Source of the DNA: an uncultured Elusimicrobia bacterium | Lineage (GTDB): Bacteria; Elusimicrobiota; Elusimicrobia; FEN-1173 | DNA length: 64,000 nt | Assembly: GCA_964484135.1 (NCBI GenBank) | Contig: CAZAEL010000003.1 | Span: 4,306-68,305, forward strand | Reading direction: 5' to 3' | Shown here: positions 35,787 to 58,691 of the stretch, one piece after another | Layout of the letters: every line of letters starts with the position of its first letter | Position numbering within the stretch: position 1 is the stretch's first letter | Translations under genes and position numbers: made by a program | Notes under the pieces: generated by a model | The model's database searches: none | The model's input: only the letters and a program-made list of their open reading frames with translations | What the model was told of the DNA's origin: nothing

Positions 35787-36719
35787 ATGAGACATTGGCT
35801 TGTGACCGGCGGCGCCGGTTTCATCGGGTCCCACGTGTCCGCGCGGCTGCGGGAACGGGGGGAATTCGTCACGGTCCTGGACAACCTGGAGACCGGCACG
35901 CGGGACAACCTGCGCTTCGCCCGTCCGAACCGCTTCGTGCGCGGCGACATCCGGAACCCCGCCGCGGTGCGGCGCGCCCTCTCCGGCGTCAGCGTCGTGG
36001 CGCACCAGGCCGCGCTCCGGTCCGTGCCCCGGTCCCTGGACGACCCCCTGTCCTCCAACGACGTGAACGTGCGGGGCACCCTCACCCTTCTTCTGGAGTC
36101 CAGCCGCGCCCGCGTCAAGCGGTTCGTGTCCGCCTCCTCCTCCTCCGTGTACGGCAACGGCCGGGTCTTCCCCCAGAAGGAGACCCTGCCGGTGGCGCCC
36201 ATTTCGCCCTACGCCGTGACCAAGGCCGCGGGGGAGGAATACTGCCGCATGTTCTGGCGCACCTACGGTCTGGAGACGGTGTCCTTGAGATACTTCAACG
36301 TGTTCGGGCCCCGCCAGGACCCCAAGTCCAAATACGCGGCCGTGATCCCCAAGTTCATCCTGGCGGCGCTCAGGGACGAACCCCTCGAAATCCACGGCGA
36401 CGGCAAGCAGTCGCGGGACTTCACGTACGTGGACAACGTCGTCCGGGCCAATTTCCTGGCGGGCACGCGGCCCCTGAAGGAGCCCAAGGCCTACAACGTG
36501 GCCGTGGCCGAGAGCCATTCCCTGCTGGACATCGTGGCCGTGATCGAGGATGTCCTGGGGAAGAAGGTCAAGAAGCGGTTCACGCCGCCCCGACGGGGCG
36601 ACGTGCGCAGGACCTTCGCCAGCATCGCCTCCATCCGCCGGGACCTGGGATACAGGCCGGCCTGGAGTTTCGACGCCGGCCTGCGGGAAACCATCGCCTA
36701 TTTCCGGTCCCGCGCATGA
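35787..36719 (+). CDS. NAD-dependent epimerase/dehydratase (WbpP/TviC-like UDP-sugar 4-epimerase family)
   Basis: [13 protein letters not shown] ... SSSSVYG ... YAVTKAAGE (YxxxK) extended-SDR pattern. Confidence 0.8.
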   Translation: MRHWLVTGGAGFIGSHVSARLRERGEFVTVLDNLETGTRDNLRFARPNRFVRGDIRNPAAVRRALSGVSVVAHQAALRSVPRSLDDPLSSNDVNVRGTLTLLLESSRARVKRFVSASSSSVYGNGRVFPQKETLPVAPISPYAVTKAAGEEYCRMFWRTYGLETVSLRYFNVFGPRQDPKSKYAAVIPKFILAALRDEPLEIHGDGKQSRDFTYVDNVVRANFLAGTRPLKEPKAYNVAVAESHSLLDIVAVIEDVLGKKVKKRFTPPRRGDVRRTFASIASIRRDLGYRPAWSFDAGLRETIAYFRSRA

Positions 36720-39108: not shown

Positions 39109-40407
39109 ATGAACGACACCCCCCTGCTTTCCTTCGTTGACCGGCTCTACGTCCGGCTGACCGGGGAGCCCTCCTCGGAACGGGTCCGCGCCTTCGTTTC
39201 CCATCTGGGGTGGGTGTCCCTGGGTTTCGCCGTGGCCAAGGCCCTGACCGTGGCGGTCAACGTGCTGGCGGGCCGCTGGCTGGGACCGGCGGAGTACGGC
39301 CGGTACAACCTGGCCCTGTCCGTGGGGGCCTTCTCCTCGCCGCTCATGTTCGGGGGCCTGTACCTCTCCGTGGTCCGCGCTGCGTCCCCCGCCGCTCCGC
39401 GGGACAGGGGCCGGTTTTACGGGACCACCCTCACCCTGGCCGCCGGCATGGGCCTCCTCTGGGGCGCGGCGTTTTGGGCGCTCCGGGGCCCTTTGGGCCG
39501 GTGGCTGGGGACGCCGCCTTTCCTGTACGGAGAAGGGATCGCGTACGGGGCCGCGTACGGGATCTTCCTCCTGATGACCTCTTTCTTGCAGGCGGAGTCC
39601 GATTTTCGTCTGCGGGCTTTCTCCGAGATGGTCTTCGCCGCCGTGTTTCTGGCGGCGTTCCTGGCGTGGGGCCGGCTGGACGAAACCCATGTGTCCGCGG
39701 TGGGGGCGCTCATCGCGGGGTACGCGGCCGGGGGCCTTTATCTTCTGACGCGGGAAGGCAGGCTTTTCCGCTTCGGTTTTTCGCGGGACGCCGCCGCGGC
39801 CCTGATCTCCTACGGCGCGTGGGCCATGGTTTCCGCGCTCTGCCAGTCGTTCCAGATGTTCTTCCTGCGTTTCGTGGTGAACCGGCACCTTTCCGCGGCG
39901 GACGTGGGGCTGTTGAGCGCGTACACCCTGTCCTCTCTGTTCCTGGGGTTTTACCTGGCCTGGATCTTCACCCTCGTCCTGTTCCCGGCCGCCGCCGCCC
40001 ATCCGGACCGGGCCGCGTTGTGGCGAAAAATGCAAAAAGGCGGGGTGAGGCTGGCCCTGCCCCTGGCGGTTTTCTTCGGGCTGTCCCAGGCCGGGGCCCT
40101 GTGGGTTTTGGGCGACGATTACCTTTTCCGGTGGGACTTGCTGGCCCCCCTGTCCCTGACGGCGGTGGCGGCGGTGGGGCAGTCGGTCCTGAGCGGGTTG
40201 GCGGCGTCGGAGGGCGCAAGGGGGTTGCGGTGGACGGTGGGCGTGAACGCGGCCACGGCCCTGCTCACGGTCCTGATGGGGCTTTTCCTGATCCCGCGGT
40301 GGGGGTTGCGGGGGGCGGTGGCGACTTACCTGATCACGTACGCGGCGGGGCTTCTGCTTTTGATCCCCGCCCGAAAAATTTTGGAGCGCGCCCGCCCGGC
40401 CTTTTAG
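39109..40407 (+). CDS. Polysaccharide biosynthesis protein / Wzx-like flippase (MOP superfamily, multi-TM)
   Basis: 432 aa, ~12 predicted hydrophobic segments, located in a glycan locus. Confidence 0.6.
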   Translation: MNDTPLLSFVDRLYVRLTGEPSSERVRAFVSHLGWVSLGFAVAKALTVAVNVLAGRWLGPAEYGRYNLALSVGAFSSPLMFGGLYLSVVRAASPAAPRDRGRFYGTTLTLAAGMGLLWGAAFWALRGPLGRWLGTPPFLYGEGIAYGAAYGIFLLMTSFLQAESDFRLRAFSEMVFAAVFLAAFLAWGRLDETHVSAVGALIAGYAAGGLYLLTREGRLFRFGFSRDAAAALISYGAWAMVSALCQSFQMFFLRFVVNRHLSAADVGLLSAYTLSSLFLGFYLAWIFTLVLFPAAAAHPDRAALWRKMQKGGVRLALPLAVFFGLSQAGALWVLGDDYLFRWDLLAPLSLTAVAAVGQSVLSGLAASEGARGLRWTVGVNAATALLTVLMGLFLIPRWGLRGAVATYLITYAAGLLLLIPARKILERARPAF

Positions 40408-42197: not shown

Positions 42198-42201
42198 GGG
42201 T

Positions 42202-42438
42202 TCAGGACTGTTTCTTGAGGTCTTCGAGGGATCGGTCCCGTGTTTCCCGGGGGACCCAGCCGGAGGCCCTGTCCCGGGTCTTGAGGCGCAGGGGATCCAT
42301 GAACACCTTGACCAGGAGGCCGAAAGGGAGGAGGAGGGTGTCATAGAGCAGGATCAAAACCAGGCGGGTCTGGAAAACCCCGATGGCGTGGGCGATCTTT
42401 TTCCAGCCGGCCCAGAGGCGTTTGAGAGAGTCGGCCAT
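42202..42438 (-). CDS. Small predicted membrane protein (78 aa) translationally coupled between the SDR and carbamoyltransferase genes; possibly SxtJ/DUF5989-like
   Basis: [46 protein letters not shown]... Its ATG overlaps the SDR stop (ATGA). The upstream part of the 352-aa ORF-track frame is an Arg/Gly/Pro-rich alternate frame of the SDR gene. Confidence 0.5.
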   Translation of the reverse strand: MADSLKRLWAGWKKIAHAIGVFQTRLVLILLYDTLLLPFGLLVKVFMDPLRLKTRDRASGWVPRETRDRSLEDLKKQS

Positions 42439-43226
42439 CAAAGGCCCCGGGTGGCCCCGCCGTCCACCACCAGCGTGGCGCCGGTGATGTAGGAGGCCCG
42501 TTCCGAGCACAGGAAGACCACGGCGTCCGCGAACTCCTCCGGGCGGCCCGCGCGGCCCAAGGGGATGCCGGCCGTCAGGGATTCCAGGGCTTGTTCCCGG
42601 GTCCGTCCGGTTTTCCGGGCGCCGGCTTCGAGGAGCGAGGCCAGGCGGTCCGTGAGGAAGCTGCCCGGGGCCGCGTTGTTCACGAGGATGCCGTCCTTGG
42701 CCGTTTCCTCGGCCAGGGACTTGGCCATGGCCGTGACCCCGGAACGAAGGGCGTTGCTCAGCACCATGTGGACGGCGGGTTGTCTGACCGTGACGCTGGT
42801 CAGGTTGACGATCCGTCCCCAGCGGTTTTTCTTCATGGCGGGAAGGGCGGCGCGGATGAGCCTGACCGCGCTCATGAGGGTCAAGTCCACGGCGGCGCGC
42901 CATTGGTCCTCCGTGATTTCCCGAAAGGCGCCGGGAGGCGGACCGCCCGCGTTGGTCACCAGGATGTCCAGCCGCCCGAAGCGCGCCACGGTTTTTTCGA
43001 CCAAAAGACCGGCCGTGTCCGGCAGGGACAGGTCCCCGGCCAGGGGAAGAATTTCGGCCTTCGTCTCGGCCTCTATTTGCCGGGCCGTTTGTCGGAGCGC
43101 CGCGCCGTCGCGGCCGTTGACGGCCACCGCAGCGCCTTCCCGCGCCAGGGCCGTTGCCACGGCCCGGCCCAGCCCCTTTGAACCGGCCGCCACCAGCGCG
43201 ACCCTGCCTTTCAGTCCCAGGTCCAT
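42438..43226 (-). CDS. SDR family oxidoreductase
   Basis: [18 protein letters not shown] ... NAG ... catalytic YxxxK region. Classical SDR. Confidence 0.85.
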
Positions 43227-43279
43227 TTTTTCTGGCCCCTCCCGAACCTATTAGATACAATTTGAAACGTCTTTATTCA

Positions 43280-44539
43280 ATGAGAGAGATGACCGCCCAA
43301 GACAATCTTCGCCGACATCTGGCGCTCTTCCGGAGGGCTTCCCTGGGCCTGACGGCCCTCTGCCTCCCCTTGTCCATCGCGGCCGCCAACATCGCCTGCG
43401 GCCTGGCTTTGCTGGCGCTCATGGCGGAGACGGCCGTCCCCGCGTGCCGCCGCCCCTATCGTCGGACCGGGCTGGAACTTCCCTGGCTGGGCCTGATGGC
43501 GGCGTCCGCGGCCGGCGTCCTCTTTTCCGCGGATCCCGGCCACGCCCTCAAAAAATCGGGCGATGAAATCCTGATCCTTTTTTTTCTGGCCGCGTCCCAG
43601 GGCCAGGACGAAGAAGACGCCAAGCGGAACATGGACCTGTTTTTGATGTCCTCCGCGGCCGCGGCGTTGTGGAGCCTCTTCCAGGCGTCCCTGGGCATCC
43701 TGCGGGGGCCGGACGGCGCCCTGGACCATGTGCCCGGGTGGGCCCATTCTCTGCCCGCCGTCGTGTTGAGGGAGCTGGCCACGCCCGCGGGCCGGGGCCT
43801 GGGCTTCTACAGCCATCCGCTGACGTTCGCCGGCGTCATGACCCTGGGGTTCTTTTTGGCGCTGGGGCGATGGGCGGAAGGGCGGCCTCCCCGTTCCGGG
43901 CTCGCGTGGGCGGCGGCCGGCGTTCTGTGGCTCGGCCTCATGGCCAGCGGGGGGCGGACCGCATTGGCCGCGTCCGCCGCGTTCGGCGTCGGGTATCTTT
44001 TTTGGAAACGGTCCCGATGGGCCTGGGCCGCTCTGGCGGTCTTTCTGGCGGCCGCAGGGCTCTGGATGTCTTCTCCGGCGAAGCGGGAACGGATGTCCCT
44101 GTCCCATCCGTCCGCCCAGTTGCGCCTGGGGCTGTGGCGCGCCTCCTGGGCGGAATTCAAAAAGGACCCTTTGACCGGCCGGGGGCCGGGCCAATTCCAC
44201 GTGTCCACCAAGGAACTGTCCGGGGAGGTGGACTATCCCGAGATGGTCTGGTCCGAGTCCCACAACATCGCGCTTCAGGCGCTGGTGGAAAAGGGGCTGC
44301 TGGGCTTTGCGGCGCTGTCATGGTTTATGGTCGCCCTGGGCCGGATATTCGTCCGCGGTGCTTCTCAAGACGGGCGGGGAGGGCTTTTTTGGGGGTTCCT
44401 CGCGCTCCTGACAACAGGCGCCACGGAGTCCTGGACCCAGGATTCGGAAGTGATCATGGCGTTGTATTTTCTGGCGGGCACGGTTTCCGCGGGTTTACAC
44501 AAAAATCCCCGGTTTTTGCAACGGGAACAATCGGGTTAA
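43280..44539 (+). CDS. O-antigen ligase / O-antigen polymerase family membrane protein (Wzy_C-like)
   Basis: 419 aa polytopic protein with a periplasmic-loop region containing SESHNIALQALVEKGLLG, similar to the O-antigen ligase domain. Confidence 0.55.
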   Translation: MREMTAQDNLRRHLALFRRASLGLTALCLPLSIAAANIACGLALLALMAETAVPACRRPYRRTGLELPWLGLMAASAAGVLFSADPGHALKKSGDEILILFFLAASQGQDEEDAKRNMDLFLMSSAAAALWSLFQASLGILRGPDGALDHVPGWAHSLPAVVLRELATPAGRGLGFYSHPLTFAGVMTLGFFLALGRWAEGRPPRSGLAWAAAGVLWLGLMASGGRTALAASAAFGVGYLFWKRSRWAWAALAVFLAAAGLWMSSPAKRERMSLSHPSAQLRLGLWRASWAEFKKDPLTGRGPGQFHVSTKELSGEVDYPEMVWSESHNIALQALVEKGLLGFAALSWFMVALGRIFVRGASQDGRGGLFWGFLALLTTGATESWTQDSEVIMALYFLAGTVSAGLHKNPRFLQREQSG

Positions 44540-44644: not shown

Positions 44645-47042
<2,398 letters not shown>

Positions 47043-47113
47043 CGCCCGACGCCGCTGTCTTGCCGGAGGCCCCCGCGGCCCCGCCGTCGTCCGTCGGCCC
47101 GGTGGATCCCGTC

Positions 47114-47935
47114 ATGGTGTTCGACCATGTCGGGCAGATTTTTTGCAGCAAGTTCGATTTCCGGCGGAAGTACGCCATCCGATACATGTTCTATTGGGAG
47201 AGGAAGCGCAAGCGGCCCCTCAGGCCCGGCGAGTTCTACGCCGTCGACGACGTTTCGTTCGCCGTCAACCGCGGCGACGTCTTTTGGGTCGTGGGTACGC
47301 CGGGCTCCGGGAAGACGTCCCTCGCCAAGCTGATGATCGGGTCCCTGTGCCCGGACGTCGGGCGCGTCCGGAGCCGGGGCGTCGTGCGCCTCGTCAGTTC
47401 CAAGTTCCGCTGGAACGGCATGATGACCGTCCGCGAAAACCTTGAGTTCCTCGGCATGCTCCATGGCCTGCCGAAGGCGAGGTTGCGGGGTTTCGCCGAC
47501 GAGATCCTGGCATTCTGCGGGGCGGCGGATCAGGCGGACATCACGGCGGGGAACTTCACGAAGAAGGCGTTCGATAACATGACGCTCGCCGCCTTCCTCT
47601 TCGCGCCGGCGGATATCTATATCTTCGACTCGAAGGTCACGTTGGGCGACGGCGAAATGGGAAAAAAGTTCGCGGATTGGGCGCGCCTGCATCTGGCGGG
47701 GAAGACCCTCATCGTCATCACCACCGGCACGCGCTTTCCGCTGGAGTTCGCCCCCAACCGTGGTCTCCTCCTCCATGAGGGAAAGGCCGAATGGCAGGGG
47801 CCGGCGTCCGGCCTGGTGCCGGCGTACCGGGCCCTCGAAGCCCGCCTTGCCGCCGAGAAGGCCAAGGAGGTCGAGCGGCCGACCGGCCTGGAAGACGAGG
47901 ACGATCTCGAAGAGGAGGAGCTACGCGCCATATGA
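47114..47935 (+). CDS. Wzt/KpsT-like ABC ATPase with intact Walker A but degenerate signature, Walker-B glutamate and H-loop (an upstream GTG at ~47038 is an alternative start)
   Basis: Walker A VVGTPGSGKTS is intact. The LSGGQ position reads NFTKKAFDN. Walker B reads IYIFDS (E to S). The H-loop reads ITT. The overall alignment pattern matches KpsT. Confidence 0.6.
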   Translation: MVFDHVGQIFCSKFDFRRKYAIRYMFYWERKRKRPLRPGEFYAVDDVSFAVNRGDVFWVVGTPGSGKTSLAKLMIGSLCPDVGRVRSRGVVRLVSSKFRWNGMMTVRENLEFLGMLHGLPKARLRGFADEILAFCGAADQADITAGNFTKKAFDNMTLAAFLFAPADIYIFDSKVTLGDGEMGKKFADWARLHLAGKTLIVITTGTRFPLEFAPNRGLLLHEGKAEWQGPASGLVPAYRALEARLAAEKAKEVERPTGLEDEDDLEEEELRAI

Positions 47936-49056
47936 TCCGCCGGCTGTTCTCCGCTTTCGATCGCGCTTCGCCGCCAGGGCCGGCCGCTCCGCCGCCCGCC
48001 GGAGGGAAGAAGGCGAACCGGAAACAGGAATTCTACGACGAAATGCGCGCTCTCGCCGCGGGGCGGGAGCCCTTGGTGTTTGGTCCCTTCTTCACGGAAA
48101 TCGGTTTTGAGACGCTCTATTGGATTCCGTTCCTGAATTGGTTCAGGCGGGAATTCGGGATCCCCGCCGGACGTATCACGGTCATATCGCGCGGCGGGAC
48201 GCGCTCTTGGTACCGCCATATCACGGACCGCTATGTCGACCTTTTCGACCTTTATTCCCTCGATGAGTTCAAGGCCAAGAACGAGGCGCGGATCGAGGAG
48301 AACCGGAAGAACAACCTGCAGAACCCGGTGAAACACCGGGTGGCGGCGGAGCTCGACCGCGAAATCGTGGCCGAGGCCTGCCGGAAACAGGGGATTTCCG
48401 GACACAAGCTCCTGCATCCGTCCCTCATGTTCCGTTACATAGACATCCTTCGGGGGGCGGCCGACCTGAAGCTGACGCGGTTCGAGCATTTCCAGCCGGA
48501 CCTCGCGCATGGGGCGCTGAAGGACCTGCCGGGGGAATACATCGCGGTGAAATTCTGGTTCGGCGGCCAGTTCAGGGAAACCGACGTCAACAAGCGCTTC
48601 GCCCAGGACGTGATCACGGCCGCGGCGCGCGTTGCGGACGTGGTGCTCCTCAACACCGGGCTCGAGGTGGAGAGGACGGATGGATTCGACCGCTGGTTCA
48701 ACGAATTGACGTCCTGCGGGGCGCGGGTCCACTGCCTGCGCGGACGGGTGGGGCTGCGGGACAATTTGGACGTCCAGACGGCCGTCATCGCCAAGTCGCG
48801 CCTTTTCCTCGGGACCTACGGCGGATTCGCGTACATCGCGCCGTTCGTCGGCGTTCCGGCCATGACGTTTTATTCCGACGAGGGGGGGTACGTGTACGAC
48901 CACCTGGAAATGCTGAACCGCGCGCTCAGGAACCTGCGCGTCTCCTCGGGGCGCCGCGCGGACTTCACGCCCCTGGACGTCGCCTCTTTCACCGCGGGCC
49001 CCGGGGTGCTGTTCGGTCTTGAATCGGCCGGCCTCCCTTCCGCGGCCGTCCGATGA
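47932..49056 (+). CDS. Uncharacterised protein, paralog A (possible KpsS/KpsC-like Capsule_synth family)
   Basis: 374 aa. Shares [24 protein letters not shown] ... SWYRH.T ... [10 protein letters not shown] ... [35 protein letters not shown] with the next gene. ATGA coupling with the ATPase gene. Confidence 0.45.
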   Translation: MIRRLFSAFDRASPPGPAAPPPAGGKKANRKQEFYDEMRALAAGREPLVFGPFFTEIGFETLYWIPFLNWFRREFGIPAGRITVISRGGTRSWYRHITDRYVDLFDLYSLDEFKAKNEARIEENRKNNLQNPVKHRVAAELDREIVAEACRKQGISGHKLLHPSLMFRYIDILRGAADLKLTRFEHFQPDLAHGALKDLPGEYIAVKFWFGGQFRETDVNKRFAQDVITAAARVADVVLLNTGLEVERTDGFDRWFNELTSCGARVHCLRGRVGLRDNLDVQTAVIAKSRLFLGTYGGFAYIAPFVGVPAMTFYSDEGGYVYDHLEMLNRALRNLRVSSGRRADFTPLDVASFTAGPGVLFGLESAGLPSAAVR

Positions 49057-50165
49057 TGCGCGGGGAAAAGTGGGGGCTGGGCGCCCTGCGGGACCGGCTC
49101 CGAGGCCTGTTGCGTCCCGGCCCTCGGGCCGGGCGCACGTACCGCCAGCTGAAGGATATCGCGGCGGGCGATCGGCCGATCCTCTGCGGACCCTTTTTCA
49201 CCGAGATCGGTTTCGAGGTACTCTATTGGATCCCGTTCGTCAACTGGTTCAGGCAAGAGTTCGGGATCGCCCCTGGGCGGCTTGTCGTCGTTTCCCGCGG
49301 CGGGGCCCAGTCCTGGTACCGCCACGTCACCGCGGACTATGAAGATGTGTTCGATTATTTTACACTGGACGAATTCAAGCGGCGGAACGAGGAGCGCATC
49401 GCGGAAAATAAGCGCAACGGACAGGGCAACGCGCCCAAGCACCTGACCGTTTCGTTTTTGGATCGGGAAATCATCAAAAAGGTGGTCCGAAAACGGGGTT
49501 TTTCCGACTTCAATCTGTTGCATCCGTCTCACATGTTCCGATTCATGGGCGCGATGCGGAACTCGCCCGACATGGAGTTCACCCGATACGAGCTCTTCCG
49601 CGCGGATGAGCGGACGCCCTTGCCGGAAGGACTGCCGGACGACTACGTCGCCGTGAAGTTTTGGTTCGGCGGACAGTTCCCGGACACGGAAACGAACCGG
49701 CGCTTCATCCGGAACCTGGTGAACGCTTTGGCGCGCTCCGGGCCGGTGGTCCTGCTCAATTCCGGCCTTGGGGTGGAGCGGACCCCGGCGTTCGACGCTT
49801 GGTTCGACGGGCAGGAGTTCGACGGGGGGAATGTCCATGGCCTCCGGGGCCGGGTGCCGTTGCGCCAGAACCTGGACGTGCAGACGGCGGTGATCCGCCG
49901 ATCCAGGCTCTTCGTGGGGACTTACGGGGGCTTCGCTTATGCGGCCCCATTCGCCGGCGTCCCGGCCGTCACGTTCTACTCCAACGAGGGGGGGTTCGTG
50001 TACGAACACTTGGACATGCTCCAGCGGGCGCTGCGTCGGCTCCGGCTGGAGACGGGCCGACCAGCGGACTTCGCGCCCTGGGACGTCCGGTTGTTCAGCC
50101 ATTGCGCCGGACGGGTGTTCGACGCCGATTTTTTGAGAGACAGTCCTGTGGTGGGGAGGATTTGA
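49053..50165 (+). CDS. Uncharacterised protein, paralog B (tandem duplicate of the previous gene)
   Basis: 370 aa, co-linear with and ~45-50% identical by eye to paralog A. ATGA coupling. Confidence 0.45.
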
Positions 50166-50167
50166 GA

Positions 50168-51193
50168 ATGGGATCGATGGGTTCGGAAGGACGGGGAAAG
50201 GCCGGGCCCCGAAAGGCCCTGGTCACGGGCGGGGCGGGTTTCATCGGCAGCCACCTTGTGGAACGGCTTCTTGCCGATGGACATGACGTGGCCGTGCTCG
50301 ACAATTTGTCCACGGGCCGCCTGGAGAACCTCAAGCACCTGAAGAGCGAGCGGCTCGTCGTGCATCACGCGGACGTCGCGGAGCCGGACAAGATCCGGCC
50401 GCATTTCGCGGGCGTCGAGTGGGTGTTCCATCTGGCCGCGCTTGCGGACATCGTCCCATCCATCCAGCAGCCGCTCAACTATCACCGTTCCAACGTGGAC
50501 GGCACCGTCAACGTGCTGGAGGCGGCGCGGGCGGCCGGCGTCAAACGGTTTCTCTATGCGGCCTCGTCCTCCTGCTATGGCCTCCCGGACGCCTTCCCGA
50601 CGCCGGAGACGGCGGCCATCCGGCCCATGTACCCCTACGCGCTCACCAAGTGGCTGGGCGAACAATACGTCATGCACTGGGCGCAGGTGTACAAGATGCC
50701 GTGCGTGTCGCTGAGGCTTTTCAACGTGTACGGGCCGCGCTCGCGCACTTCCGGCACCTACGGAGCGGTGTTCGGCGTGTTCCTGGCCCAGAAGCTGGCC
50801 GGGAAACCGTTTACCGTGGTCGGCGACGGAAAGCAGACCCGCGATTTTACGTTCGTGAGCGACGTGGCCGACGCCTTCATCGCTGCGGCCGCTTCCGATG
50901 TGTCCGGGGAGATGTTCAACGTGGGGTCCGGCAACACCTACAGCGTGAACCGGCTGGTGGAACTGCTGGGCGGGACGGTGACGTACATCCCGAAGCGTCC
51001 GGGCGAGCCGGACTGCACCTTCGCGGACACGCGCAAGATCGCGTCTCGGTTGGGCTGGAAGCCGCGCGTGACTTTCGAACAAGGCGTCCAGGCCATGCTG
51101 GACAACATCGACTACTGGCGGAGCGCTCCTGTATGGGACAGCGCTTCCATCGCTGTCGCCACGAAGGAATGGTTTGAGTATCTCGGACGCTGA
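50168..51193 (+). CDS. NAD-dependent epimerase/dehydratase (UDP-glucuronate decarboxylase/UXS-like)
   Basis: [19 protein letters not shown] ... [13 protein letters not shown] ... extended SDR. Confidence 0.75.
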
Positions 51194-51212: not shown

Positions 51213-52763
51213 ATGACGACCGGGACCAACGGCAGGAACAAGACGCATGGCAAGATCGTGGAGCTGGAGGCGCTCGCCGGCATCCTGGACGGCCTCCGCG
51301 CGAAGGAGAAGCGCATCGTGCACTGCCACGGCGTGTTCGATCTCCTCCACGTGGGACACATCCGACATTTTCAGGAGGCCAAGGGGCTCGGCGACGTCCT
51401 CGTCGTCACCCTGACGCAGGACCAATACGTCAACAAGGGTCCGCACCGGCCGGCTTTCAAGCAGGACCTCCGGGCCGAGGTCATCGCCGCTCTTGACTGC
51501 GTGGATTATGTCGCCATCAATCGATGGCCCCAGGCCGCCGAAACCATAAAGCTCCTCCGGCCGCACGTCTACGCCAAGGGGCCCGATTACAAGGATGCCG
51601 CCAAGGACGTGACGGGCGGCATCACCCAGGAGGAGGACGCGGTTCGGTCCGTGGGCGGGAAGATCGTTTTCACCGAGGACATCACCTTCAGCGCCTCCAA
51701 TCTGCTGAACAAGTTCTTCCCGGCTTTCCCCAAGGAAGTCACGGATTACATCGACCACTTCAAAACCCGCTACCCGACGGACAGGGTGCTGGACTATCTC
51801 GAGAAGGCGCGGCCACTCAAGGTGCTCGTCATCGGAGAAACCATCATCGACGAGTATCAATTTTGTACCGCCATCGGAAAGTCCTCCAAGGAGCCCATTA
51901 TCGCCCTTCGGCACAATGCCACGGAACGGTTCGCCGGCGGCGTTCTGGCGGTCGGCAACCACATCGCGAACTTCTGCGAAGAGGTGGGGCTGGTTTCTTA
52001 CTTGGGCAAGGACAGCCCGCACGAACGGTTCGTCCGCGGCAGTTTGAACGAAAAGATCGTGTCCCACTTTCTTTATAAACAGGACTGCCCGACCATCCTG
52101 AAACGGCGCTTCATCGAAAGTTATTTTTTCAGCAAACTCCTCGAAGTGTACGAGATGAACGACCGGGAGTTGAACGAGAAGGAGAACGCCGAGTTCTGCG
52201 CCGTGCTCGACCGGGAGGTGCCGAAATACGACGTCGTGATCGTCTTTGACTTCGGACACGGTATGATGAGCCGGAAGGCCATCGACATCATTTGCCAGAA
52301 GGCGGCCTTCCTGGCCGTCAACGTGCAGTCCAATGCCGGAAACACCGGCTACCAGACGGTGCTCAAGTACCCGCGCGCGGATTACGTATGCATGGCGGAA
52401 AACGAGGTCCGCATGGACCTGCGCGACCGCTACAGCGAGCTCCGGGACGTCACCCGGGGGCTTTATGACAAGTTGGATTGTCAAAAAGTGGTGGTGACCC
52501 GCGGTAAAAACGGATGCCTCTGCTACAGCGCAGAAGAGGGGTTCATCCAGGTGCCGGCCCTGGCGGGGCAAGTGGTGGACCGCATGGGCACGGGGGACGC
52601 TTTTCTCTCCCTGACCGCCCTCTGCGTCAAACAAAAGGCCCCGCTGGAGGTCGTCGGTTTCATCGGAAACGCGGTGGGCGCTCAGGCGGTGGCCACCGTG
52701 GGGCACCGCCGGTTCATTGAAAAGGCTCCCCTGCTCAAGCACATCCAAACCCTGATGAAATGA
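51213..52763 (+). CDS. Bifunctional sugar-phosphate nucleotidyltransferase (N-terminal, RfaE-domain-II/cytidylyltransferase-like) and PfkB-type sugar kinase (C-terminal): HldE-like with inverted domain order
   Basis: N-terminal CHGVFDLLHVGHIRHFQEAKGLGDVLVVTLTQD (HxGH nucleotidyltransferase). C-terminal PfkB pattern with VVDRMGTGDAFLS. GGGAG Shine-Dalgarno 7 nt before ATG 51213. Confidence 0.65.
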   Translation: MTTGTNGRNKTHGKIVELEALAGILDGLRAKEKRIVHCHGVFDLLHVGHIRHFQEAKGLGDVLVVTLTQDQYVNKGPHRPAFKQDLRAEVIAALDCVDYVAINRWPQAAETIKLLRPHVYAKGPDYKDAAKDVTGGITQEEDAVRSVGGKIVFTEDITFSASNLLNKFFPAFPKEVTDYIDHFKTRYPTDRVLDYLEKARPLKVLVIGETIIDEYQFCTAIGKSSKEPIIALRHNATERFAGGVLAVGNHIANFCEEVGLVSYLGKDSPHERFVRGSLNEKIVSHFLYKQDCPTILKRRFIESYFFSKLLEVYEMNDRELNEKENAEFCAVLDREVPKYDVVIVFDFGHGMMSRKAIDIICQKAAFLAVNVQSNAGNTGYQTVLKYPRADYVCMAENEVRMDLRDRYSELRDVTRGLYDKLDCQKVVVTRGKNGCLCYSAEEGFIQVPALAGQVVDRMGTGDAFLSLTALCVKQKAPLEVVGFIGNAVGAQAVATVGHRRFIEKAPLLKHIQTLMK

Positions 52764-52782: not shown

Positions 52783-53388
52783 ATGCTGAAAGACACAGTT
52801 TCGAAGCTCGGCGCAACGGCTTATCTTCAGGACCTCACGCGGATTCTGCTCGGTACGTCGGTCACGGACGCCCGCGGCGCGGAACTTCTCCTGGACGCCG
52901 CCATCGACCGCGCCAGCGACCTGGTGTGGTCCCGCCGAACCGGTTCTGCCAAGGTGATGTTGGTGGGAAACGGCGGCAGCGCCGCCATCGTGAGCCACGC
53001 CCAAAACGACCTCTGTAAGATGATCGGCGCCCGGGCCATGGTGTTCCATGAGACCTCCTACCTCACGGCCCTGGCCAACGACGACGGTTATGAGACCGCT
53101 TTCGAAACGAATGTCCGCCTTTGGGCGGCCCGAGGAGACATGCTGGTGGCCGTAAGCAGTTCGGGGCGGTCGGAGAACATCCTTCGGGCCGTCCGCGCGG
53201 CGCGCGACGCTGGCTGCGAGGTGGCGACTTTTTCCGGGTTCAAACCCGACAACCCGCTTCGCGGCATGGGGGACCTCAATTTTTACGTCAAATCCGGCGA
53301 ATATGGTTTCGTCGAGGTCTCGCACATGGCGTTGCTCCACCTGCTGACGGACCTGACCGCGCGACGTCTTAAGAAGGGAGATCGCTGA
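52783..53388 (+). CDS. gmhA: Phosphoheptose (sedoheptulose-7-phosphate) isomerase
   Basis: SIS domain: VMLVGNGGSAAIVSHAQNDL ... LVAVSSSGRSENIL. Confidence 0.85.
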   Translation: MLKDTVSKLGATAYLQDLTRILLGTSVTDARGAELLLDAAIDRASDLVWSRRTGSAKVMLVGNGGSAAIVSHAQNDLCKMIGARAMVFHETSYLTALANDDGYETAFETNVRLWAARGDMLVAVSSSGRSENILRAVRAARDAGCEVATFSGFKPDNPLRGMGDLNFYVKSGEYGFVEVSHMALLHLLTDLTARRLKKGDR

Positions 53389-54392
53389 TGCCTGCCAATC
53401 GTTTCAAGGAGGTCCTGGTCACCGGAGGGGCCGGCTACGTCGGTGCCATCTTGGTGCCGAAGCTGTTGAAGAAAGGGTATCGCGTCCGGGTACTCGACCT
53501 GTATATGTACGGGGACAACGTCCTTGACGCGGTCAAGGACCATGTGGGCCTGCGGCAGATCAAAGGCGACATGCGGGACGTGAGGCTCCTCAAGGACGCG
53601 ATCCTCGGTTGCGATGCCGTCATACATCTGGCCTGTATCTCCAATGATCCCAGTTTCGAGCTCAACCCGGAACTGGGCAAGTCCATCAACTACGATGCCT
53701 TCCTGCCCTTGGTCCGGCACTCCAAGGAGTTCGGCGTGAAACGGTTCGTCTATGCCTCCTCTTCAAGCGTCTACGGGGTGAAAGAGGAGGACAACGTCAC
53801 CGAGGATCTCCCTCTGGAGCCACTCACGGACTACTCCAAATATAAGGCCATGTGTGAAGAGATTCTGCAAAAGGAGCGCGCGCCGGGTTTCGTCGCGCTG
53901 ACTCTTCGCCCGGCCACGGTCTGTGGCTACTCGCCGCGCCTCCGTCTGGACCTCTCCGTCAACATCCTCACCAACCACGCGGTGAACAACAGGAAGATTC
54001 GCGTGTTCGGCGGCGCGCAGCAGCGCCCCAATATCCACATCGACGACGTCTCGGACCTCTACGTGCAATCGCTCGAGTGGCCGGACGAAAAGATCGATGG
54101 CCAAGTGTTCAACGCCGGATACGAGAATCAATCCCTGAACGACCTGGCCGCGACCGTGAAGAAGGTCGTGGGAGAGGACGTGGCCATCGTCACCGAGCCC
54201 ACCAACGACAATCGTTCCTACCGTATTTCTTCGGAGCGGATCAAGAAGGCGTTGGGCTTCGTGCCGCGCCATACCATCGAGGACGCCGTGGTCGACCTGG
54301 TGAAAGCCTTTCGTGAAGGGAAGATTCCCAACGCCATGACGGACGACCGTTATTACAACATCAAAACCATGCAGCGCCTGAAGCTCAAATAG
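53388..54392 (+). CDS. NAD-dependent epimerase/dehydratase (extended SDR; specificity unknown)
   Basis: VLVTGGAGYVGAILV ... YSKYKAMCE (YxxxK). ATG overlaps the gmhA stop. Confidence 0.75.
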   Translation: MPANRFKEVLVTGGAGYVGAILVPKLLKKGYRVRVLDLYMYGDNVLDAVKDHVGLRQIKGDMRDVRLLKDAILGCDAVIHLACISNDPSFELNPELGKSINYDAFLPLVRHSKEFGVKRFVYASSSSVYGVKEEDNVTEDLPLEPLTDYSKYKAMCEEILQKERAPGFVALTLRPATVCGYSPRLRLDLSVNILTNHAVNNRKIRVFGGAQQRPNIHIDDVSDLYVQSLEWPDEKIDGQVFNAGYENQSLNDLAATVKKVVGEDVAIVTEPTNDNRSYRISSERIKKALGFVPRHTIEDAVVDLVKAFREGKIPNAMTDDRYYNIKTMQRLKLK

Positions 54393-54394
54393 GC

Positions 54395-55369
54395 ATGGGC
54401 CGCCTGGACCCTCAAACGGGCCTCGCTCTCTATGAACGGATGCTCCGCATCCGGCTCGTGGAGGAGCGTATCGTCGAGTTGTATCCCGAGCAACAGATGC
54501 GCTGCCCCGTGCACCTTTGTATCGGACAGGAGGCCGTGTCGGCGGGCGTTTGCGCCCGGCTCCGCAACACGGATCGGGTCTACAGCACCCACCGTTCCCA
54601 CGGGCATTACGTGGGCAAGGGGGGCGATCTGAAGGCGATGTTGGCGGAAATCTACGGCAAAGCGACGGGCTGTTGCCGGGGGAAAGGCGGTTCCATGCAC
54701 CTCTTGGATCTGTCCGTGGGATACATGGGTTCGGCGCCCATCGTCGGCGCCACCATCCCCGTGGCGGTGGGCTCCGCTTTGGCCTCACGGACCAGCCGGA
54801 CGGACGAGGTGACGGTGACGTTTTTCGGAGAAGGCGCGACCGAGGAGGGCGTGTTCCACGAGGCCGTCAATTTCGCTGTACTGAAGAAACTCCCCGTGGT
54901 CTTCGTCTGCGAGAACAACCTCTATTCGGTCTACTCGCCCATGTCCGTGCGCCAGCCTGAGGGACGCGAAGTCTACGCCCTGGCGGCGGGGCACGGCTTG
55001 CCGAGCTTCAAGGCGGACGGGAACGACGTCGCGGAAGTCTATCGCTTGGCGGGGGAAGCCGTTGAGCGCGCGCGGACAGGGAAAGGCCCCTCGTTTCTTG
55101 AGTTCTCCACCTACCGCTGGCGGGAGCATTGCGGACCCAATTTCGACAATGACATCGGCTACCGCACGGAAGCCGAATACCGGGCCTGGCGGAAGCTTTG
55201 CCCGCTTGAGCGCGCCGAACGGGAATTGAGAGGGGCGGGCACCCTCGACGAACGCCGTCGCGCTGCCCTGGAATCGTCCATCCGGGCCGAGATAGACGAA
55301 GCCGTCCGTTTCGCCAAGGAGAGCCCTTTCCCTCCGGCGGAACAGATGGAGGAGCATGTCTATGCCTGA
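54395..55369 (+). CDS. Thiamine-diphosphate-dependent dehydrogenase E1 component, alpha subunit
   Basis: Pyruvate/acetoin dehydrogenase E1-alpha pattern: HLCIGQEAVSAG ... GKGGSMHL ... TPP-binding FFGEGATEEGVFHEAVNFA ... CENNLYS. Confidence 0.8.
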   Translation: MGRLDPQTGLALYERMLRIRLVEERIVELYPEQQMRCPVHLCIGQEAVSAGVCARLRNTDRVYSTHRSHGHYVGKGGDLKAMLAEIYGKATGCCRGKGGSMHLLDLSVGYMGSAPIVGATIPVAVGSALASRTSRTDEVTVTFFGEGATEEGVFHEAVNFAVLKKLPVVFVCENNLYSVYSPMSVRQPEGREVYALAAGHGLPSFKADGNDVAEVYRLAGEAVERARTGKGPSFLEFSTYRWREHCGPNFDNDIGYRTEAEYRAWRKLCPLERAERELRGAGTLDERRRAALESSIRAEIDEAVRFAKESPFPPAEQMEEHVYA

Positions 55370-56435
55370 ACATCCCGCGGCCCGCGAAATCCGTTTCTCC
55401 CAGGCCCTGAACGAGGCCGTGGACCAATGCATGTCCCGCGACCCGCGGGTCGTGTTGATGGGGCTCGGCGTGCCGGACCCGAAAGGGATCTTCGGCAGCA
55501 CGAGCGGCCTCCAGAAGAAACACGGACCGAATCGGGTGATGGACATGCCCTGTTCGGAGAACGGGATGACGGGGGTATGCGTGGGGGCGGCCGTCTCGGG
55601 CCTGCGTCCGGTGCTGACGCACCAGCGCATCGATTTCGCCCTTCTCTCCATGGACCAGATCGTGAACCAGGCCGCCAAGTGGCACTACATGTTCGGAGGG
55701 AAAATGAAGGTGCCCCTGGTCATCCGCATGATCATCGGCCGCGGCTGGGGCCAGGGGCCTCAGCATTCCCAGAGCCTGCAGGCCTGGTTCGCCCACGTCC
55801 CGGGATTGAAGGTCGTGATGCCAGCCACGCCCTATGACGCCAAGGGGTTGCTTGTGTCCGCCATTGAGGACGACAACCCCGTGGTGTTCCTTGAGCATCG
55901 CTGGCTTTACAACATCAAAGGGCCCGTGCCGGAAGAGGTCTACCGCGTTCCCCTCGGGAAGGCCCGCCTGGCGAGGGAGGGGGCCAACGTGACCATCGTG
56001 GCCACGTCTTACATGACTTTGGAGGCGTTGAGGGCCGCCGATGAGTTGAAAAAAACGGGCATCAGCGCCGAAGTCGTCGACGTCCGCACGCTGCGGCCCC
56101 TGGACTCGAAGACGATCCTTGACTCGGTGCGCAAAACCGGCCGCCTTGTGGTGGCGGACACGGGATGGAAAGCGGTGGGGTTCGCGGCGGAGGTGGTGGC
56201 CCAGGCGTCGGAGCAGGCCCTGGGTGATCTGAAGGCGCCGCCCGTGCGCATCACGCTCCCCGACTGCCCCGCCCCGACCAGCCCGGCGCTGGCGGACGGG
56301 TACTATCCGCGCGCGGTGCACATCGCCGCGGCCGTGCGGAAGATGCTGAAGCAGGACGTCGGTGAACTGCTGGACAGTCACCCCGCCGGCCAGCCACTGG
56401 ACGTGCCCGACATGAGTTTCACCGGGCCTTTTTAA
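55356..56435 (+). CDS. Thiamine-diphosphate-dependent dehydrogenase E1 component, beta subunit (transketolase-like)
   Basis: Pyrimidine-binding and C-terminal transketolase domains (ENGMTGVCVGAAVSGLRPV ... VFLEHRWLY). Overlaps the alpha gene. Confidence 0.8.
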   Translation: MSMPEHPAAREIRFSQALNEAVDQCMSRDPRVVLMGLGVPDPKGIFGSTSGLQKKHGPNRVMDMPCSENGMTGVCVGAAVSGLRPVLTHQRIDFALLSMDQIVNQAAKWHYMFGGKMKVPLVIRMIIGRGWGQGPQHSQSLQAWFAHVPGLKVVMPATPYDAKGLLVSAIEDDNPVVFLEHRWLYNIKGPVPEEVYRVPLGKARLAREGANVTIVATSYMTLEALRAADELKKTGISAEVVDVRTLRPLDSKTILDSVRKTGRLVVADTGWKAVGFAAEVVAQASEQALGDLKAPPVRITLPDCPAPTSPALADGYYPRAVHIAAAVRKMLKQDVGELLDSHPAGQPLDVPDMSFTGPF

Positions 56436-56448
56436 TTAAGGAGAAAAC

Positions 56449-57450
56449 ATGAACACGCGCGTCGCGGTCATCGGGAGCAATTCATTCTCGGGAAGCGATT
56501 TCGTCGACCTCCTCCTGGAAGAGGGGCATTACGAGGTCGTCGGCATCAGTCGTTCCCCGGAGAAGAGCGAGGTCTTCCTGCCGTACAAGCGGCATATGAA
56601 CGGAGCCGGAAGCCGATTCCGGTTCCATCAACTGGACCTCAACCACGAGATTCCGAAGATGCTGCAGGTTCTTGAGGACTTCAGGCCCGAGGCCATCGTC
56701 AACTTCGCCGCCCAGAGCGAGGTGGCGCCGAGCTGGGAGAACCCGGACCATTGGTTCCTCACCAACGCGGTGGCTCTCACGCGGCTGGTGAACGGCTTGA
56801 AGGACAAGAAATGGCTGAAGAGATACGTCCACATCTCTTCGCCGGAGGTATACGGCACCTGCGAGGGCTTCATCACCGAGTCCGCTCCGGTCAACCCCAG
56901 CACGCCCTACGCCGCCTCCAAGGCCGCGGGCGACCTATCGCTCTTCACCTACCACAAGAACTTCGCCTTCCCCATCGTCACGATCCGCGCCACGAACGTC
57001 TACGGGGCCTACCAGCAGCTCTTCAAGATTATCCCGCGCTCCGTCATCAACCTGAAGTTGGGTAAGACCATCCAGCTCCATGGGGGCGGCGTGGCGGTGA
57101 AGTCCTACATCCACATCCGCGACGTCTCTCGCGGTGAGCTGGCCGCGATGGAGAAGGGGCGGCCGGGCGAGATCTACCACCTCTCGCCCGACCGCGGCTA
57201 CGCCGTAAAGGAGGTGGTGGAGACCATCTGCCGGCGGATGGGCAAGGATTTCGCGAAATGCACCGAGGCCGTGGCCGAGCGCCTGGGACAGGACAAGGCC
57301 TACACCATCGATTCCTCCAAGGCCCGGAAGGAATTCGGCTGGAAGCCGGCCGTGTCGCTCGACGAAGGCATCGGGCAGGTCATCTCCTGGGTGGACCGCT
57401 ACTGGGACCAGATTCAGAGACAGCCCCTCAATTACGCGCATAAGCCATGA
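56449..57450 (+). CDS. NAD(P)-dependent epimerase/dehydratase-family protein (candidate NDP-sugar ketoreductase/epimerase)
   Basis: VAVIGSNSFSGSDFV ... YAASKAAGD (YxxxK). Confidence 0.7.
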   Translation: MNTRVAVIGSNSFSGSDFVDLLLEEGHYEVVGISRSPEKSEVFLPYKRHMNGAGSRFRFHQLDLNHEIPKMLQVLEDFRPEAIVNFAAQSEVAPSWENPDHWFLTNAVALTRLVNGLKDKKWLKRYVHISSPEVYGTCEGFITESAPVNPSTPYAASKAAGDLSLFTYHKNFAFPIVTIRATNVYGAYQQLFKIIPRSVINLKLGKTIQLHGGGVAVKSYIHIRDVSRGELAAMEKGRPGEIYHLSPDRGYAVKEVVETICRRMGKDFAKCTEAVAERLGQDKAYTIDSSKARKEFGWKPAVSLDEGIGQVISWVDRYWDQIQRQPLNYAHKP

Positions 57451-58691
57451 AGACCTTTTCGAAATCCAGAAGGAAATCTCGAGCGCCCATCGCGCGGAAG
57501 GCCGAAAGCCACATCCGCCGGCGTAAGACGGCATGTTCGGCCTGCGGGGAGGAGAGATTGGTCAGGTTGCTTGATCTGCCCAATCTGCCGCTCACCGGGA
57601 TTTACCTCAAAGAGAAGGTCCGCGGACGGTTCGAGCCGTCGGACCAGGGGTTGTCCCTCTGCCGCGTCTGCGGTCACGCCCAGCTGTTGAACGTCCTTGA
57701 CCCGAACTACGTTTATGACGACACCTACACGCACCGCAGCTCCCAGAGTCCCATCGCGACGGGCGGGAACGACTTCTTCCACGTTTTCATCGCCAAATTG
57801 AGCGGGGGGCGGAAATTTCGCCGCATCGTGGACGTGGGTTGCAACGACATGGTGCTGCTCCGCAAGCTTCAGCCCATGGGGGAACGGCTTCTGGGCGTGG
57901 ACCCCATCTGGCGGGGCAACGAGCCGCCCGATGAGGGAAACATCCGCGTGCTGGGTAAGTTCATCGAGGAGGTGGATTTGGCCAAAGAGCTGGGCGGCCG
58001 GCCGGATTTGGTCGTTTCCACGCACACCTTCGAGCACATTGACGAGCCCAAGGTTGAAATCAAGCGGCTATTGGACGCCGCGGATCCAGACGCACTTTTC
58101 GTGGTGGAAGTCCCGAGTTTCGACACGCTTTTGGAGCTTTCGCGTTTCGATCAGGTGTTTCATCAGCACATCCAGTATTTCAGCCTGGCTTCCTTTTCGC
58201 GGATGGTTCGTGACCTCGGTTGCCGGGTGACGGCGCACGCATTCAATTACTATTATTGGGGTGGCACGATGTTGGTGGCGTTCCGTCGCGCCAGAGGCGG
58301 TTCGGGAGAAGACGGCTTTCAGATGCCGACCGAAGAGGCCGCCTCCGGGAGTTTTTCCCGTTTCAAAGCGCAGCTGACATCCACGATGAAGACCGTTGAA
58401 TCCCTGCGCGGTACGGCGATACATGGTTTTGGCGCGGCCCAGATGCTGCCGACGCTCGCTTACCACATGGGGACGGACCTTTCGTTTTTGGATTCCATTC
58501 TGGACGACGATCCTCGCAGGGACGGGTTGGTGTACCCCGATTTGGCCCCCCGAATTGAACGGCCGGGAGAGGATTTTACGCTCGAAGGTAAAAATGTGTT
58601 GTTGACGGCCCTCGACAGCGCGCGGCCCATCCTGCGCCGGCTCATCGCGTTGAGGCCCAAACGGTTGCTTTTGCCGCTCAGCCTGCTCTGA
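57447..58691 (+). CDS. NDP-sugar C-methyltransferase (TylCIII/EryBIII-like; N-terminal Zn-finger, class I SAM MTase core, C-terminal C-MT domain)
   Basis: CSACGEERL ... CRVCGHAQL Zn-binding pairs. VDVGCNDMVLL SAM motif. EHIDEP. C-terminal domain typical of sugar C3/C5 methyltransferases. ATGA coupling. Confidence 0.7.
   Translation: MKTFSKSRRKSRAPIARKAESHIRRRKTACSACGEERLVRLLDLPNLPLTGIYLKEKVRGRFEPSDQGLSLCRVCGHAQLLNVLDPNYVYDDTYTHRSSQSPIATGGNDFFHVFIAKLSGGRKFRRIVDVGCNDMVLLRKLQPMGERLLGVDPIWRGNEPPDEGNIRVLGKFIEEVDLAKELGGRPDLVVSTHTFEHIDEPKVEIKRLLDAADPDALFVVEVPSFDTLLELSRFDQVFHQHIQYFSLASFSRMVRDLGCRVTAHAFNYYYWGGTMLVAFRRARGGSGEDGFQMPTEEAASGSFSRFKAQLTSTMKTVESLRGTAIHGFGAAQMLPTLAYHMGTDLSFLDSILDDDPRRDGLVYPDLAPRIERPGEDFTLEGKNVLLTALDSARPILRRLIALRPKRLLLPLSLL

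Follow-up and report, generated by a model that had tools for sequence, protein, structure and literature searches.

A tandem pair of proteins with a predicted GT-B fold, from an unannotated family, coupled to a degenerate Wzt-like domain in an Elusimicrobiota glycan locus

The stretch of DNA analysed here, called the window, covers 64 kb of contig CAZAEL010000003.1, and the subject of this report is a pair of adjacent genes within it, A and B, whose products belong to a family without annotation and are modelled with a GT-B fold. A and B close a chain of five genes, gmd-wzm-wzt-A-B, each linked to the next by a 4-nt overlap (Table 1): GTGA at 46203 (gmd/wzm) and 47039 (wzm/wzt), and ATGA at 47932 (wzt/A) and 49053 (A/B). 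The two ATGA overlaps had been proposed in an earlier note on this DNA and are confirmed, and the coordinates and lengths that it gave for A and B agree with the list of open reading frames (ORFs) and their translations. Independent gene calls on an identical public contig (L001) place the same boundaries, with wzm, wzt, A and B encoding 279, 298, 374 and 370 aa, followed by a short-chain dehydrogenase/reductase (SDR) of 341 aa. The chain is embedded in a glycan locus of about 26 kb (approximately 35.8–62.3 kb), delimited with Pfam and NCBIfam. The TrpB of the window has its nearest named relatives (75–84% identity) in metagenome-assembled genomes of Elusimicrobiota, and these best hits suggest that this is also the source lineage.

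A and B are paralogues, as had been claimed earlier: BLASTP aligns them with 57% identity (191/337) at an E-value of 1e-133, far past chance, and the blocks originally singled out as shared, [40 protein letters not shown] and [35 protein letters not shown], are all present in that alignment. The same operon is found on a related contig (L007), where one gene product is 77% identical to A and the other 65–68% identical to B, with cross-comparisons giving 56–60%. This orthologue pairing places the duplication before the split between the window organism and that of L007, with both copies retained, and the sequences thus indicate an old duplication whose copies have been separately maintained. 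Between A and B, identity is 54% in the N-terminal half (21 paralogue-specific positions) and 65% in the C-terminal half (13 such positions), a difference that lends weak support to the idea that the two proteins would use similar donors and different acceptors. A search for hydrophobic segments found no transmembrane segment in A, and both proteins are proposed to be soluble or peripheral. Proteins identical to A and/or B also occur on L001 and L002, contigs from public sequencing runs that are independent of each other (SRR25316602 and SRR8109491); the source organism, or one very close to it, has thus been sampled more than once. A scan for promoters and terminators between 43 and 62.9 kb returned nothing exceeding shuffled expectation.

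Neither A nor B matches a Pfam family at E ≤ 0.01 or an NCBIfam family at E ≤ 0.1, and 49 members of the family that were scanned have no Pfam family in common even at E ≤ 10, in agreement with the earlier note, which could not place the pair with confidence in a characterised family. At that same permissive threshold the 49 members showed no match to PF05159 (Capsule_synth), PF01075 (Glyco_transf_9), PF04464 (Glyphos_transf) or PF02350 (Epimerase_2). A profile of the 49-member alignment, run against all PDB sequences, gave one noise match only at E ≤ 10 and no KpsC or WbbB chain. The AlphaFold2 models of A (predicted local distance difference test score, pLDDT, 87.8; predicted template modelling score, pTM, 0.87) and B (pLDDT 89.2; pTM 0.88) each contain, by the order of their secondary structure elements, the two Rossmann-like halves of the GT-B fold. 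Foldseek searches of the PDB at E ≤ 1e-3 returned 53 matches for A and 61 for B, and all those listed are GT-B enzymes or epimerases. Comparisons were made over the top 50 structural matches for each model, and both lists are dominated by GT9 heptosyltransferases, UDP-GlcNAc 2-epimerases and GT1 enzymes. For A, the three best matches are WaaF (1PSW, E 2.1e-6) and WaaC (6DFE/2H1H, E 1.1e-5 and 2.0e-5), and the best template modelling scores (TM-scores), 0.40–0.47, go to GT9 enzymes. For B, UDP-GlcNAc 2-epimerases come first by E-value (6.4e-6), followed by the GT9 structure 3TOV, TibC, GT1 enzymes, WaaF and WaaC; GT9 enzymes again have the best TM-scores (0.41–0.46), with 3TOV at the top (0.44–0.46). 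Both proteins are therefore predicted to adopt a GT-B fold, and the GT-B-like character suspected in the earlier note is borne out by the models.

The family is GT9-like in its predicted fold and, short of significance, in one motif, and is not recognisable as a member of GT9 by sequence; this reading follows from the GT9 TM-scores taken together with the missing PF01075 match and the outcome of profile alignment. When the family was aligned in hhalign with a GT9 profile built from WaaC (verified as identical to 2GT1), 3TOV, a WaaF fragment and homologues annotated with PF01075, a shallow set of 16 sequences (Neff 2.5), the probability was 9.5% (E 0.0034) over 48 columns that cover the donor loop only. 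These columns pair the block N-L-x-V-Q-T...G-T-Y-G-G-F...P...G-V-P of the family with the donor loop and helix of WaaC (residues 235–280). The same short match was recovered with WaaC alone in hhalign and by tblastn, and is significant in neither. Near the N-terminus the G53-x-E55...P61 of the family recalls G12-D13...P19 of WaaC, a resemblance at the level of pattern only. About 20 residues are strictly conserved in the family across phyla, and these cluster in loops that form the active sites of GT-B enzymes.

The partner encoded directly upstream of A is a Wzt-like nucleotide-binding domain that has lost most of its catalytic motifs. It scores only 38 bits against ABC_tran in Pfam, and its best sequence matches in the PDB are TarH (6JBH) and TagH, with nucleotide-binding domain 1 (NBD1) of CFTR also among the best. 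Motif states were read from the printed alignments to TarH and TagH. Walker A (GVNGSGKST in TarH, GTPGSGKTS in the window), the D-loop (SVGD, TLGD) and the A-loop tyrosine are kept, and these are all that remains of the canonical Wzm/Wzt nucleotide-binding motif set. The Q-loop (NNQLTG, NGMMTV) has lost its glutamine to methionine, the signature (YSSGM, FTKKA) is gone with SSGM changed to TKKA, Walker B (LVIDE, YIFDS) has lost the catalytic glutamate (DE to DS), and the histidine of the H-loop (ISHS, ITTG) is replaced by threonine. The orthologue on L007 is 82% identical and carries the same substitutions. By the established mechanism of ATP-binding cassette (ABC) proteins, neither composite ATP site would be expected to be canonical, even with a normal partner, since this protein lacks its own Walker B and H-loop residues as well as its own signature; no other ABC ATPase was found in the window. 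The earlier note had described A and B as coupled to an ABC-2 polysaccharide exporter, and of this description the coupling stands but a canonical ABC ATPase does not. The membrane partner is likewise divergent, with no match to Pfam ABC2_membrane (PF01061) and a weak match to NCBIfam KpsM (E 5e-4).

In seven genomes of Vicinamibacterales (L010, L016, L017, L038, L043, L079 and L081) a Wzt-like domain and a family domain are encoded in one uninterrupted ORF, and the wzm products beside these fusions are 32–37% identical to the Wzm-like protein of the window. The fused Wzt-like domains keep Walker A and have lost the signature, the catalytic glutamate and the H-loop histidine. The fused family domains, which match A and B at 27–33% identity (E 1e-33 to 1e-46), keep G46, P47, E55, W59, P61, S81, R82, G83, W88, Y89, K129, H157, P158, T290, G292 and P299, with H319 kept in most. 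In contrast, an unfused ABC protein beside a Pfam-positive ABC2_membrane gene in L005/L006 is canonical (FSSGM, LLADE, VSHD). Read as a "Rosetta stone", the fusion is evidence that the Wzt-like domain and the family protein would interact. The fallback offered in the earlier note, a new exporter-associated family, fits this picture, the family being coupled to a Wzt-like domain in the window and fused to one in the seven other genomes. The Wzt-like protein ends in an acidic tail (net −7 over 30 aa) and A (+5) and B (+6) begin with basic segments; that these tails might serve for docking is speculation. A hidden Markov model (HMM) of the degenerate domain detected no such domain in the 381 top-ranking family proteins, the fused family domains being more divergent than these. 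An alignment of nine degenerate Wzt domains proved too divergent for a metagenome scan, and the two closest sequences, scanned instead, gave six loci, none with a family gene; the one Wzt match over the full length, in L089, is canonical in its motifs.

The family is large and widespread, with Acidobacteriota contributing most of its clusters. An HMMER search of 1.84 billion representative proteins returned 1,722 clusters (at 50% identity) at E ≤ 1e-3, and 940 at E ≤ 1e-30. Among 410 homologues found for B, every named one is a "hypothetical protein". Species-representative genomes contain 351 relatives, and the best 80 of these come almost all from Vicinamibacterales/Acidobacteriota, with a few from Nitrospinota, Planctomycetota, Verrucomicrobia and Auribacter, at identities to B that never exceed 43%. 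No match to B was found by tblastn in 72,556 plasmids. Gene context was counted over 77 distinct loci, which are dominated by those of one order (Vicinamibacterales), and these are not independent. Two or more family copies are present in 54 of these loci, usually two to six per glycan locus, and they stand in tandem in 42. A GT2 gene lies directly upstream in 40, often as a fusion, and wzm or wzt is visible in 21. A nucleotidyltransferase of PF01467 type, resembling rfaE_dom_II (77 bits, versus 30 bits for TagD), follows within 1.5 kb in 32 loci from several phyla. Family domains are also fused to GT2 or sulfotransferase domains, or to one another (Table 1), and a class of 850–920 aa has an N-terminal half that weakly resembles GT4 and BFO_1060-type glycosyltransferases. 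Glycan-assembly transferases of ABC-transporter-dependent pathways are multi-copy, modular and prone to fusion in glycan loci (PMC11231755), and these same habits make the family typical of such modules.

Outside Elusimicrobiota the neighbouring nucleotidyltransferase usually forms a fusion with an S-adenosylmethionine (SAM) methyltransferase, and next to it comes a conserved protein of some 316 aa; the resulting cassette, from family gene to 316-aa protein, recurs in other phyla (Table 1). The 316-aa partner has no Pfam or NCBIfam match, is 35–79% identical between loci, and has no homologue in the window.

The remaining features of the window surround this operon. Its first 32 kb hold housekeeping genes (leuB-like, rho, prfA, aroA, his, trp, accD and folC). 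An ORF at 3–7178 (+) runs off the start of the window, encodes at least 2,391 aa and has DUF218, at residues 1815–1908, as its sole Pfam match. At the edge of the glycan locus lie ORFs at 32896–35676 (+, 926 aa) and 36550–37533 (+, 328 aa), both without a Pfam match and the shorter also without an NCBIfam match; the 926-aa ORF and a ROK-family gene overlap in different frames, and part of the ORF may be spurious. Ahead of the operon the glycan locus encodes SDR epimerases, a protein of the UDP-glucose/GDP-mannose dehydrogenase family, a Wzx-like flippase, a carbamoyltransferase, a Wzy_C protein and a helix-turn-helix regulator. After B come an SDR, HldE-like and GmhA-like proteins, further SDRs, a thiamine pyrophosphate (TPP)-dependent E1 alpha and beta pair, a C-methyltransferase, and genes of DmpF/DmpG-like and HpcH aldolase type. 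The 341-aa SDR matches NCBIfam GalE, LegB and heptose_epim, all below their cut-offs. The HldE-like protein matches HldE PRK11316 (E 7.7e-45), rfaE_dom_I and rfaE_dom_II, likewise all below cut-off, and its domain order, nucleotidyltransferase then PfkB kinase, is the reverse of that in E. coli HldE; no GmhB was found in the window. Between 54395 and 62259, the TPP-dependent E1 alpha/beta genes, a C-methyltransferase of NDP-hexose type, the DmpF/DmpG-like acetaldehyde dehydrogenase and aldolase, an HpcH/HpaI aldolase and SDRs form a set that suggests a branched-chain or higher-carbon sugar. The clustering of the flippase and the Wzy_C protein with the Wzm/Wzt-like pair is compatible with two possible export routes or a hybrid one, and the recurrence of the carbamoyltransferase beside family genes hints at O-carbamoylated glycans.

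Table 1. Coordinates of features in the window and of related loci in other contigs and proteins.
Feature	Position	Strand	Details
Wzx-like flippase (Polysacc_synt_3)	39109..40407	+	Pfam; 7 hydrophobic segments; possible alternative export route
NodU/CmcH-type carbamoyltransferase	40404-42344	-	recurs beside family genes in L005, L026, L058, L083, L007
Wzy_C / O-antigen-ligase-type membrane protein	43154..44539	+	Pfam Wzy_C E 1.5e-17
gmd, GDP-mannose 4,6-dehydratase	45223..46206	+	TIGR01472 458.9 bits vs cut-off 415; Pfam GDP_Man_Dehyd E 3.6e-138; first of chain
Wzm-like polytopic membrane protein, divergent ABC-2 type	46203..47042	+	279 aa; ~6 hydrophobic segments
Wzt-like nucleotide-binding domain	47039..47935	+	298 aa; degenerate catalytic motifs; no carbohydrate-binding domain; acidic C-terminal tail
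Paralogue A	47932..49056	+	374 aa; GT-B fold model; unannotated family
Paralogue B	49053..50165	+	370 aa; GT-B fold model; unannotated family
SDR-type NDP-sugar epimerase/dehydratase	50168..51193	+	341 aa; 2 nt past B; Pfam Epimerase, GDP_Man_Dehyd
HldE-like bifunctional protein	51213..52763	+	Pfam CTP_transf_like + PfkB
GmhA-like SIS-domain sugar-phosphate isomerase	52783..53388	+	Pfam SIS_2; NCBIfam phosphoheptose isomerase models 65-72 bits, below cut-offs
Sugar-nucleotide tailoring genes: SDR, TPP-dependent E1 alpha + beta, SDR, C-methyltransferase	53388..58691	+	Pfam
Wzt-like orthologue	L007:8072-8893
Wzt-family fusion, example	L010:711-2600
GT2 + family fusions	P0106, P0124, L010:8804-11038
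Family + sulfotransferase fusion	P0131
Fusion of two family copies in one protein	P0121
Cassette loci (family gene, nucleotidyltransferase, ~316-aa protein)	L086:10001-13178, L087:10001-14322, L088:10001-13072, L004:10001-13323, L010:8804-13121

Since the glycan locus between 35.8 and 62.3 kb contains no Pfam-recognisable glycosyltransferase, A and B are its only candidates with a glycosyltransferase fold. From fold, context and the habits of the family we infer a glycosyltransferase activity, a donor type and catalytic residues for A and B, and a docking role for the Wzt-like domain. With moderate confidence, A and B are taken to be glycosyltransferases that work with the Wzm/Wzt-like module. 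They would act as the two serial chain-building enzymes of the locus. The flanking genes, gmd upstream and the SDR, HldE-like kinase/nucleotidyltransferase and GmhA-like isomerase downstream, would supply nucleotide-sugars, and each enzyme would transfer a sugar from one of these to a glycan carried on a lipid, on the cytoplasmic side of the membrane. E55, an invariant acidic residue in the loop after the first beta-strand, would probably serve as catalytic base, and binding of the donor would fall to the C-terminal T-x-G-G...P helix-loop, by analogy with GT9. A and B would be physically associated with the products of the two genes immediately before them, the Wzm-like membrane protein and the Wzt-like domain; because the motifs for ATP hydrolysis are lost, the latter is less likely to energise export than to dock the enzymes at the membrane.

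The donor is most likely a heptose-type or a 6-deoxy sugar. A heptose-type donor is favoured by the resemblance to GT9, by the HldE-like and GmhA-like genes and by the link, across phyla, to an rfaE-II-like nucleotidyltransferase. A GDP-6-deoxy sugar is favoured by the bona fide gmd that heads the operon and by the parallel with the operon of the Pseudomonas common polysaccharide antigen (PMC3560663). The proposal that at least one of the two proteins uses a heptose-type donor is given somewhat less than an even chance of being right.

Several points weigh against this view of the pair. No significant sequence link ties the family to any characterised glycosyltransferase family, the hhalign probability with GT9 being the 9.5% given above. 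The Foldseek TM-scores are modest (0.40–0.47) and the E-values reach only 1e-5 to 1e-6, with UDP-GlcNAc 2-epimerases, which are not transferases, matching about equally well by E-value. No initiating phosphoglycosyltransferase was found in the window. As to the donor, the gmd immediately upstream equally indicates a GDP-6-deoxyhexose, the HldE-like and GmhA-like proteins fall below curated NCBIfam cut-offs and so do not establish a heptose pathway, and in most loci of other phyla GmhA and kinase genes are not near the family.

Other functions for A and B were weighed against the same data. The reading raised in the earlier note, that they are Kps-type transferases of beta-linked 3-deoxy-D-manno-oct-2-ulosonic acid (Kdo), analogues of KpsC and KpsS whose product would be the poly-Kdo lipid linker of a capsule, with a KpsMT-like pump as the exporter, draws on the GT-B-like fold, on the adjoining ABC-2-like pair with its weakly KpsM-like membrane subunit, on the echo of the dual-module KpsC in two related proteins, and on some distant family members that adjoin NeuB and CMP-sugar synthetase genes. 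It fails every feature tested. PF05159 is matched by none of the 49 family members scanned, even at E ≤ 10, the PDB search with the family profile retrieved no chain of KpsC or WbbB at that threshold, and neither KpsC, KpsS nor WbbB is among the top 50 structural matches of either model, where GT9 is nearest by TM-score. The search for genes of CMP-Kdo synthesis was equally negative: the 64-kb window contains no KdsA, KdsB/KpsU or KpsF-type gene, with no Pfam match to DAHP_synth_1 or CTP_transf_3 and a GmhA-type protein as the only one with a SIS domain. The Kps reading is largely refuted and is regarded as extremely improbable. A transferase of non-Leloir type, for example a TagF-like one with a CDP- or ADP-activated donor from which a phospho-alcohol or phospho-sugar would pass to the glycan, is an unlikely alternative. 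The nucleotidyltransferase directly downstream in many loci, often fused to a methyltransferase, is of PF01467 type, a superfamily that includes TagD, fusions of a glycosyltransferase with a TagF-like domain are described for capsule polymerases (PMC5974469), and the family has invariant histidine, lysine and arginine residues. That nucleotidyltransferase, however, matches rfaE_dom_II far better than TagD, PF04464 is matched by none of the 49 members, and TagF/TarL is missing from the top 50 Foldseek matches.

It is also conceivable, though quite unlikely, that A, B and the fused domains are mainly non-catalytic adaptors that tether or regulate the Wzm/Wzt-like module, for example by binding a lipid-linked glycan or a nucleotide. 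Fusion to a catalytically degenerate Wzt-like domain and the opposite charges of the Wzt tail and the A/B N-termini would suit such a role, but the strictly conserved residues in the loops of the GT-B active site are kept in the fused copies, the family also occurs without an ABC gene nearby and fused to other enzymes, and without A and B the locus would have no recognisable glycosyltransferase. Very unlikely, finally, is an activity as NDP-sugar 2-epimerases on the nucleotide sugars of the locus: UDP-GlcNAc 2-epimerases head the list for B by E-value and are frequent in both lists, yet their TM-scores are 0.24–0.34 as against 0.40–0.47 for GT9, PF02350 is not matched, and two to six copies per locus with fusions to GT2 and ABC domains suit assembly modules better.

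If A and B are glycosyltransferases, as preferred here, the consequences extend beyond this locus. Among the Acidobacteriota, which are a major phylum of soils, many glycan loci have this family as their dominant module with a glycosyltransferase fold. It occurs also in Elusimicrobiota, Verrucomicrobia, Nitrospinota and Planctomycetota, and neither Pfam nor NCBIfam offers a model that would detect it. Its assignment would close gaps in the annotation of many polysaccharide pathways from the environment, where glycosyltransferase steps are now missing, and a new CAZy family would probably result. A bolder proposal, offered as a doubtful one, is that the Wzm-like protein, the catalytically dead Wzt-like domain and the GT9-like GT-B enzyme might form a conserved three-part machine, derived from an ABC exporter and working without ATP hydrolysis, either as a membrane scaffold that presents a lipid-linked acceptor to the transferases or as a device that passes the product on without ATP turnover. 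If this is true, polysaccharide would be assembled here in a way that has yet to be described. The proposal raises the testable question of whether parts of ABC exporters have been reused as non-hydrolysing assembly scaffolds and, if not, how such a transporter is energised. The family, the fusion of Wzt to a glycosyltransferase and the degenerate Wzt were not found described in the literature searched.

Among known systems, the GT9 ADP-heptose heptosyltransferases (WaaC 2GT1/2H1H/6DFE, WaaF 1PSW, Veillonella 3TOV and TibC 4RAP/4RB4) are the closest solved structures for both paralogues. They share the GT-B fold, the C-terminal strand-loop-helix block of the family aligns, in the non-significant match, with the donor region D261-S-G...H266 of WaaC, and genes for HldE-like nucleotidyltransferases adjoin the family. 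The family differs in having no PF01075 match and a profile alignment of low probability, in structural alignments with 10–15% identity, in the motifs GPxxxExGFE..YWxP and SRGG..WY in place of the G-D-x5-P of GT9, and in being multi-copy in operons of O-antigen/ABC type, unlike the GT9 enzymes of the lipopolysaccharide core. The order of the operon resembles that of the common polysaccharide antigen cluster of Pseudomonas aeruginosa, rmd-gmd-wbpW-wzm-wzt-wbpX-wbpY-wbpZ, which directs a 6-deoxy-sugar polymer built on a lipid carrier (PMC3560663): in both, gmd is followed by wzm-wzt and then by consecutive glycosyltransferase genes, predicted ones in the window. However, WbpX, WbpY and WbpZ are described as rhamnosyltransferases of an established type and the Pseudomonas Wzt is functional by complementation (PMC3560663), whereas A and B are unannotated and the Wzt-like protein of the window has lost its catalytic motifs.

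KpsC and KpsS (PF05159; GT107; PMC10148158) have in common with A and B a GT-B-related fold, partnership with an ABC-2-like gene pair and a two-module arrangement; sequence, profile and top-ranked structural similarity are absent, as are Kdo pathway genes from the window. Closer in organisation are the multi-module assembly proteins of O-antigens, such as Klebsiella WbbB and the O4/O7 enzymes, in which several glycosyltransferase modules, separate or fused, serve one pathway and which include glycosyltransferase families without prior annotation (PMC11231755). In A and B, unlike WbbB-type proteins, no coiled-coil ruler or terminator domain was seen, and the fusion partner in the present family can be the ABC nucleotide-binding domain itself, an arrangement not found described in the literature searched. 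GT137, the Klebsiella O4 terminator, was also considered and set aside, on a comparison by description only (non-canonical GT-B topology, coiled coil). The Wzt-like domain recalls the degenerate sites of heterodimeric ABC exporters (CFTR NBD1, TM287/288 and ABCB11; PMC7544095), where the catalytic glutamate of Walker B is lost and Walker A kept, but those heterodimers keep one fully canonical site, whereas here the Q-loop glutamine, signature, catalytic glutamate and H-loop histidine are missing from a single protein. The family of A and B is best described as a new family-level variant among GT-B glycan-assembly enzymes, with conserved coupling or fusion to a degenerate ABC domain as its additional feature.

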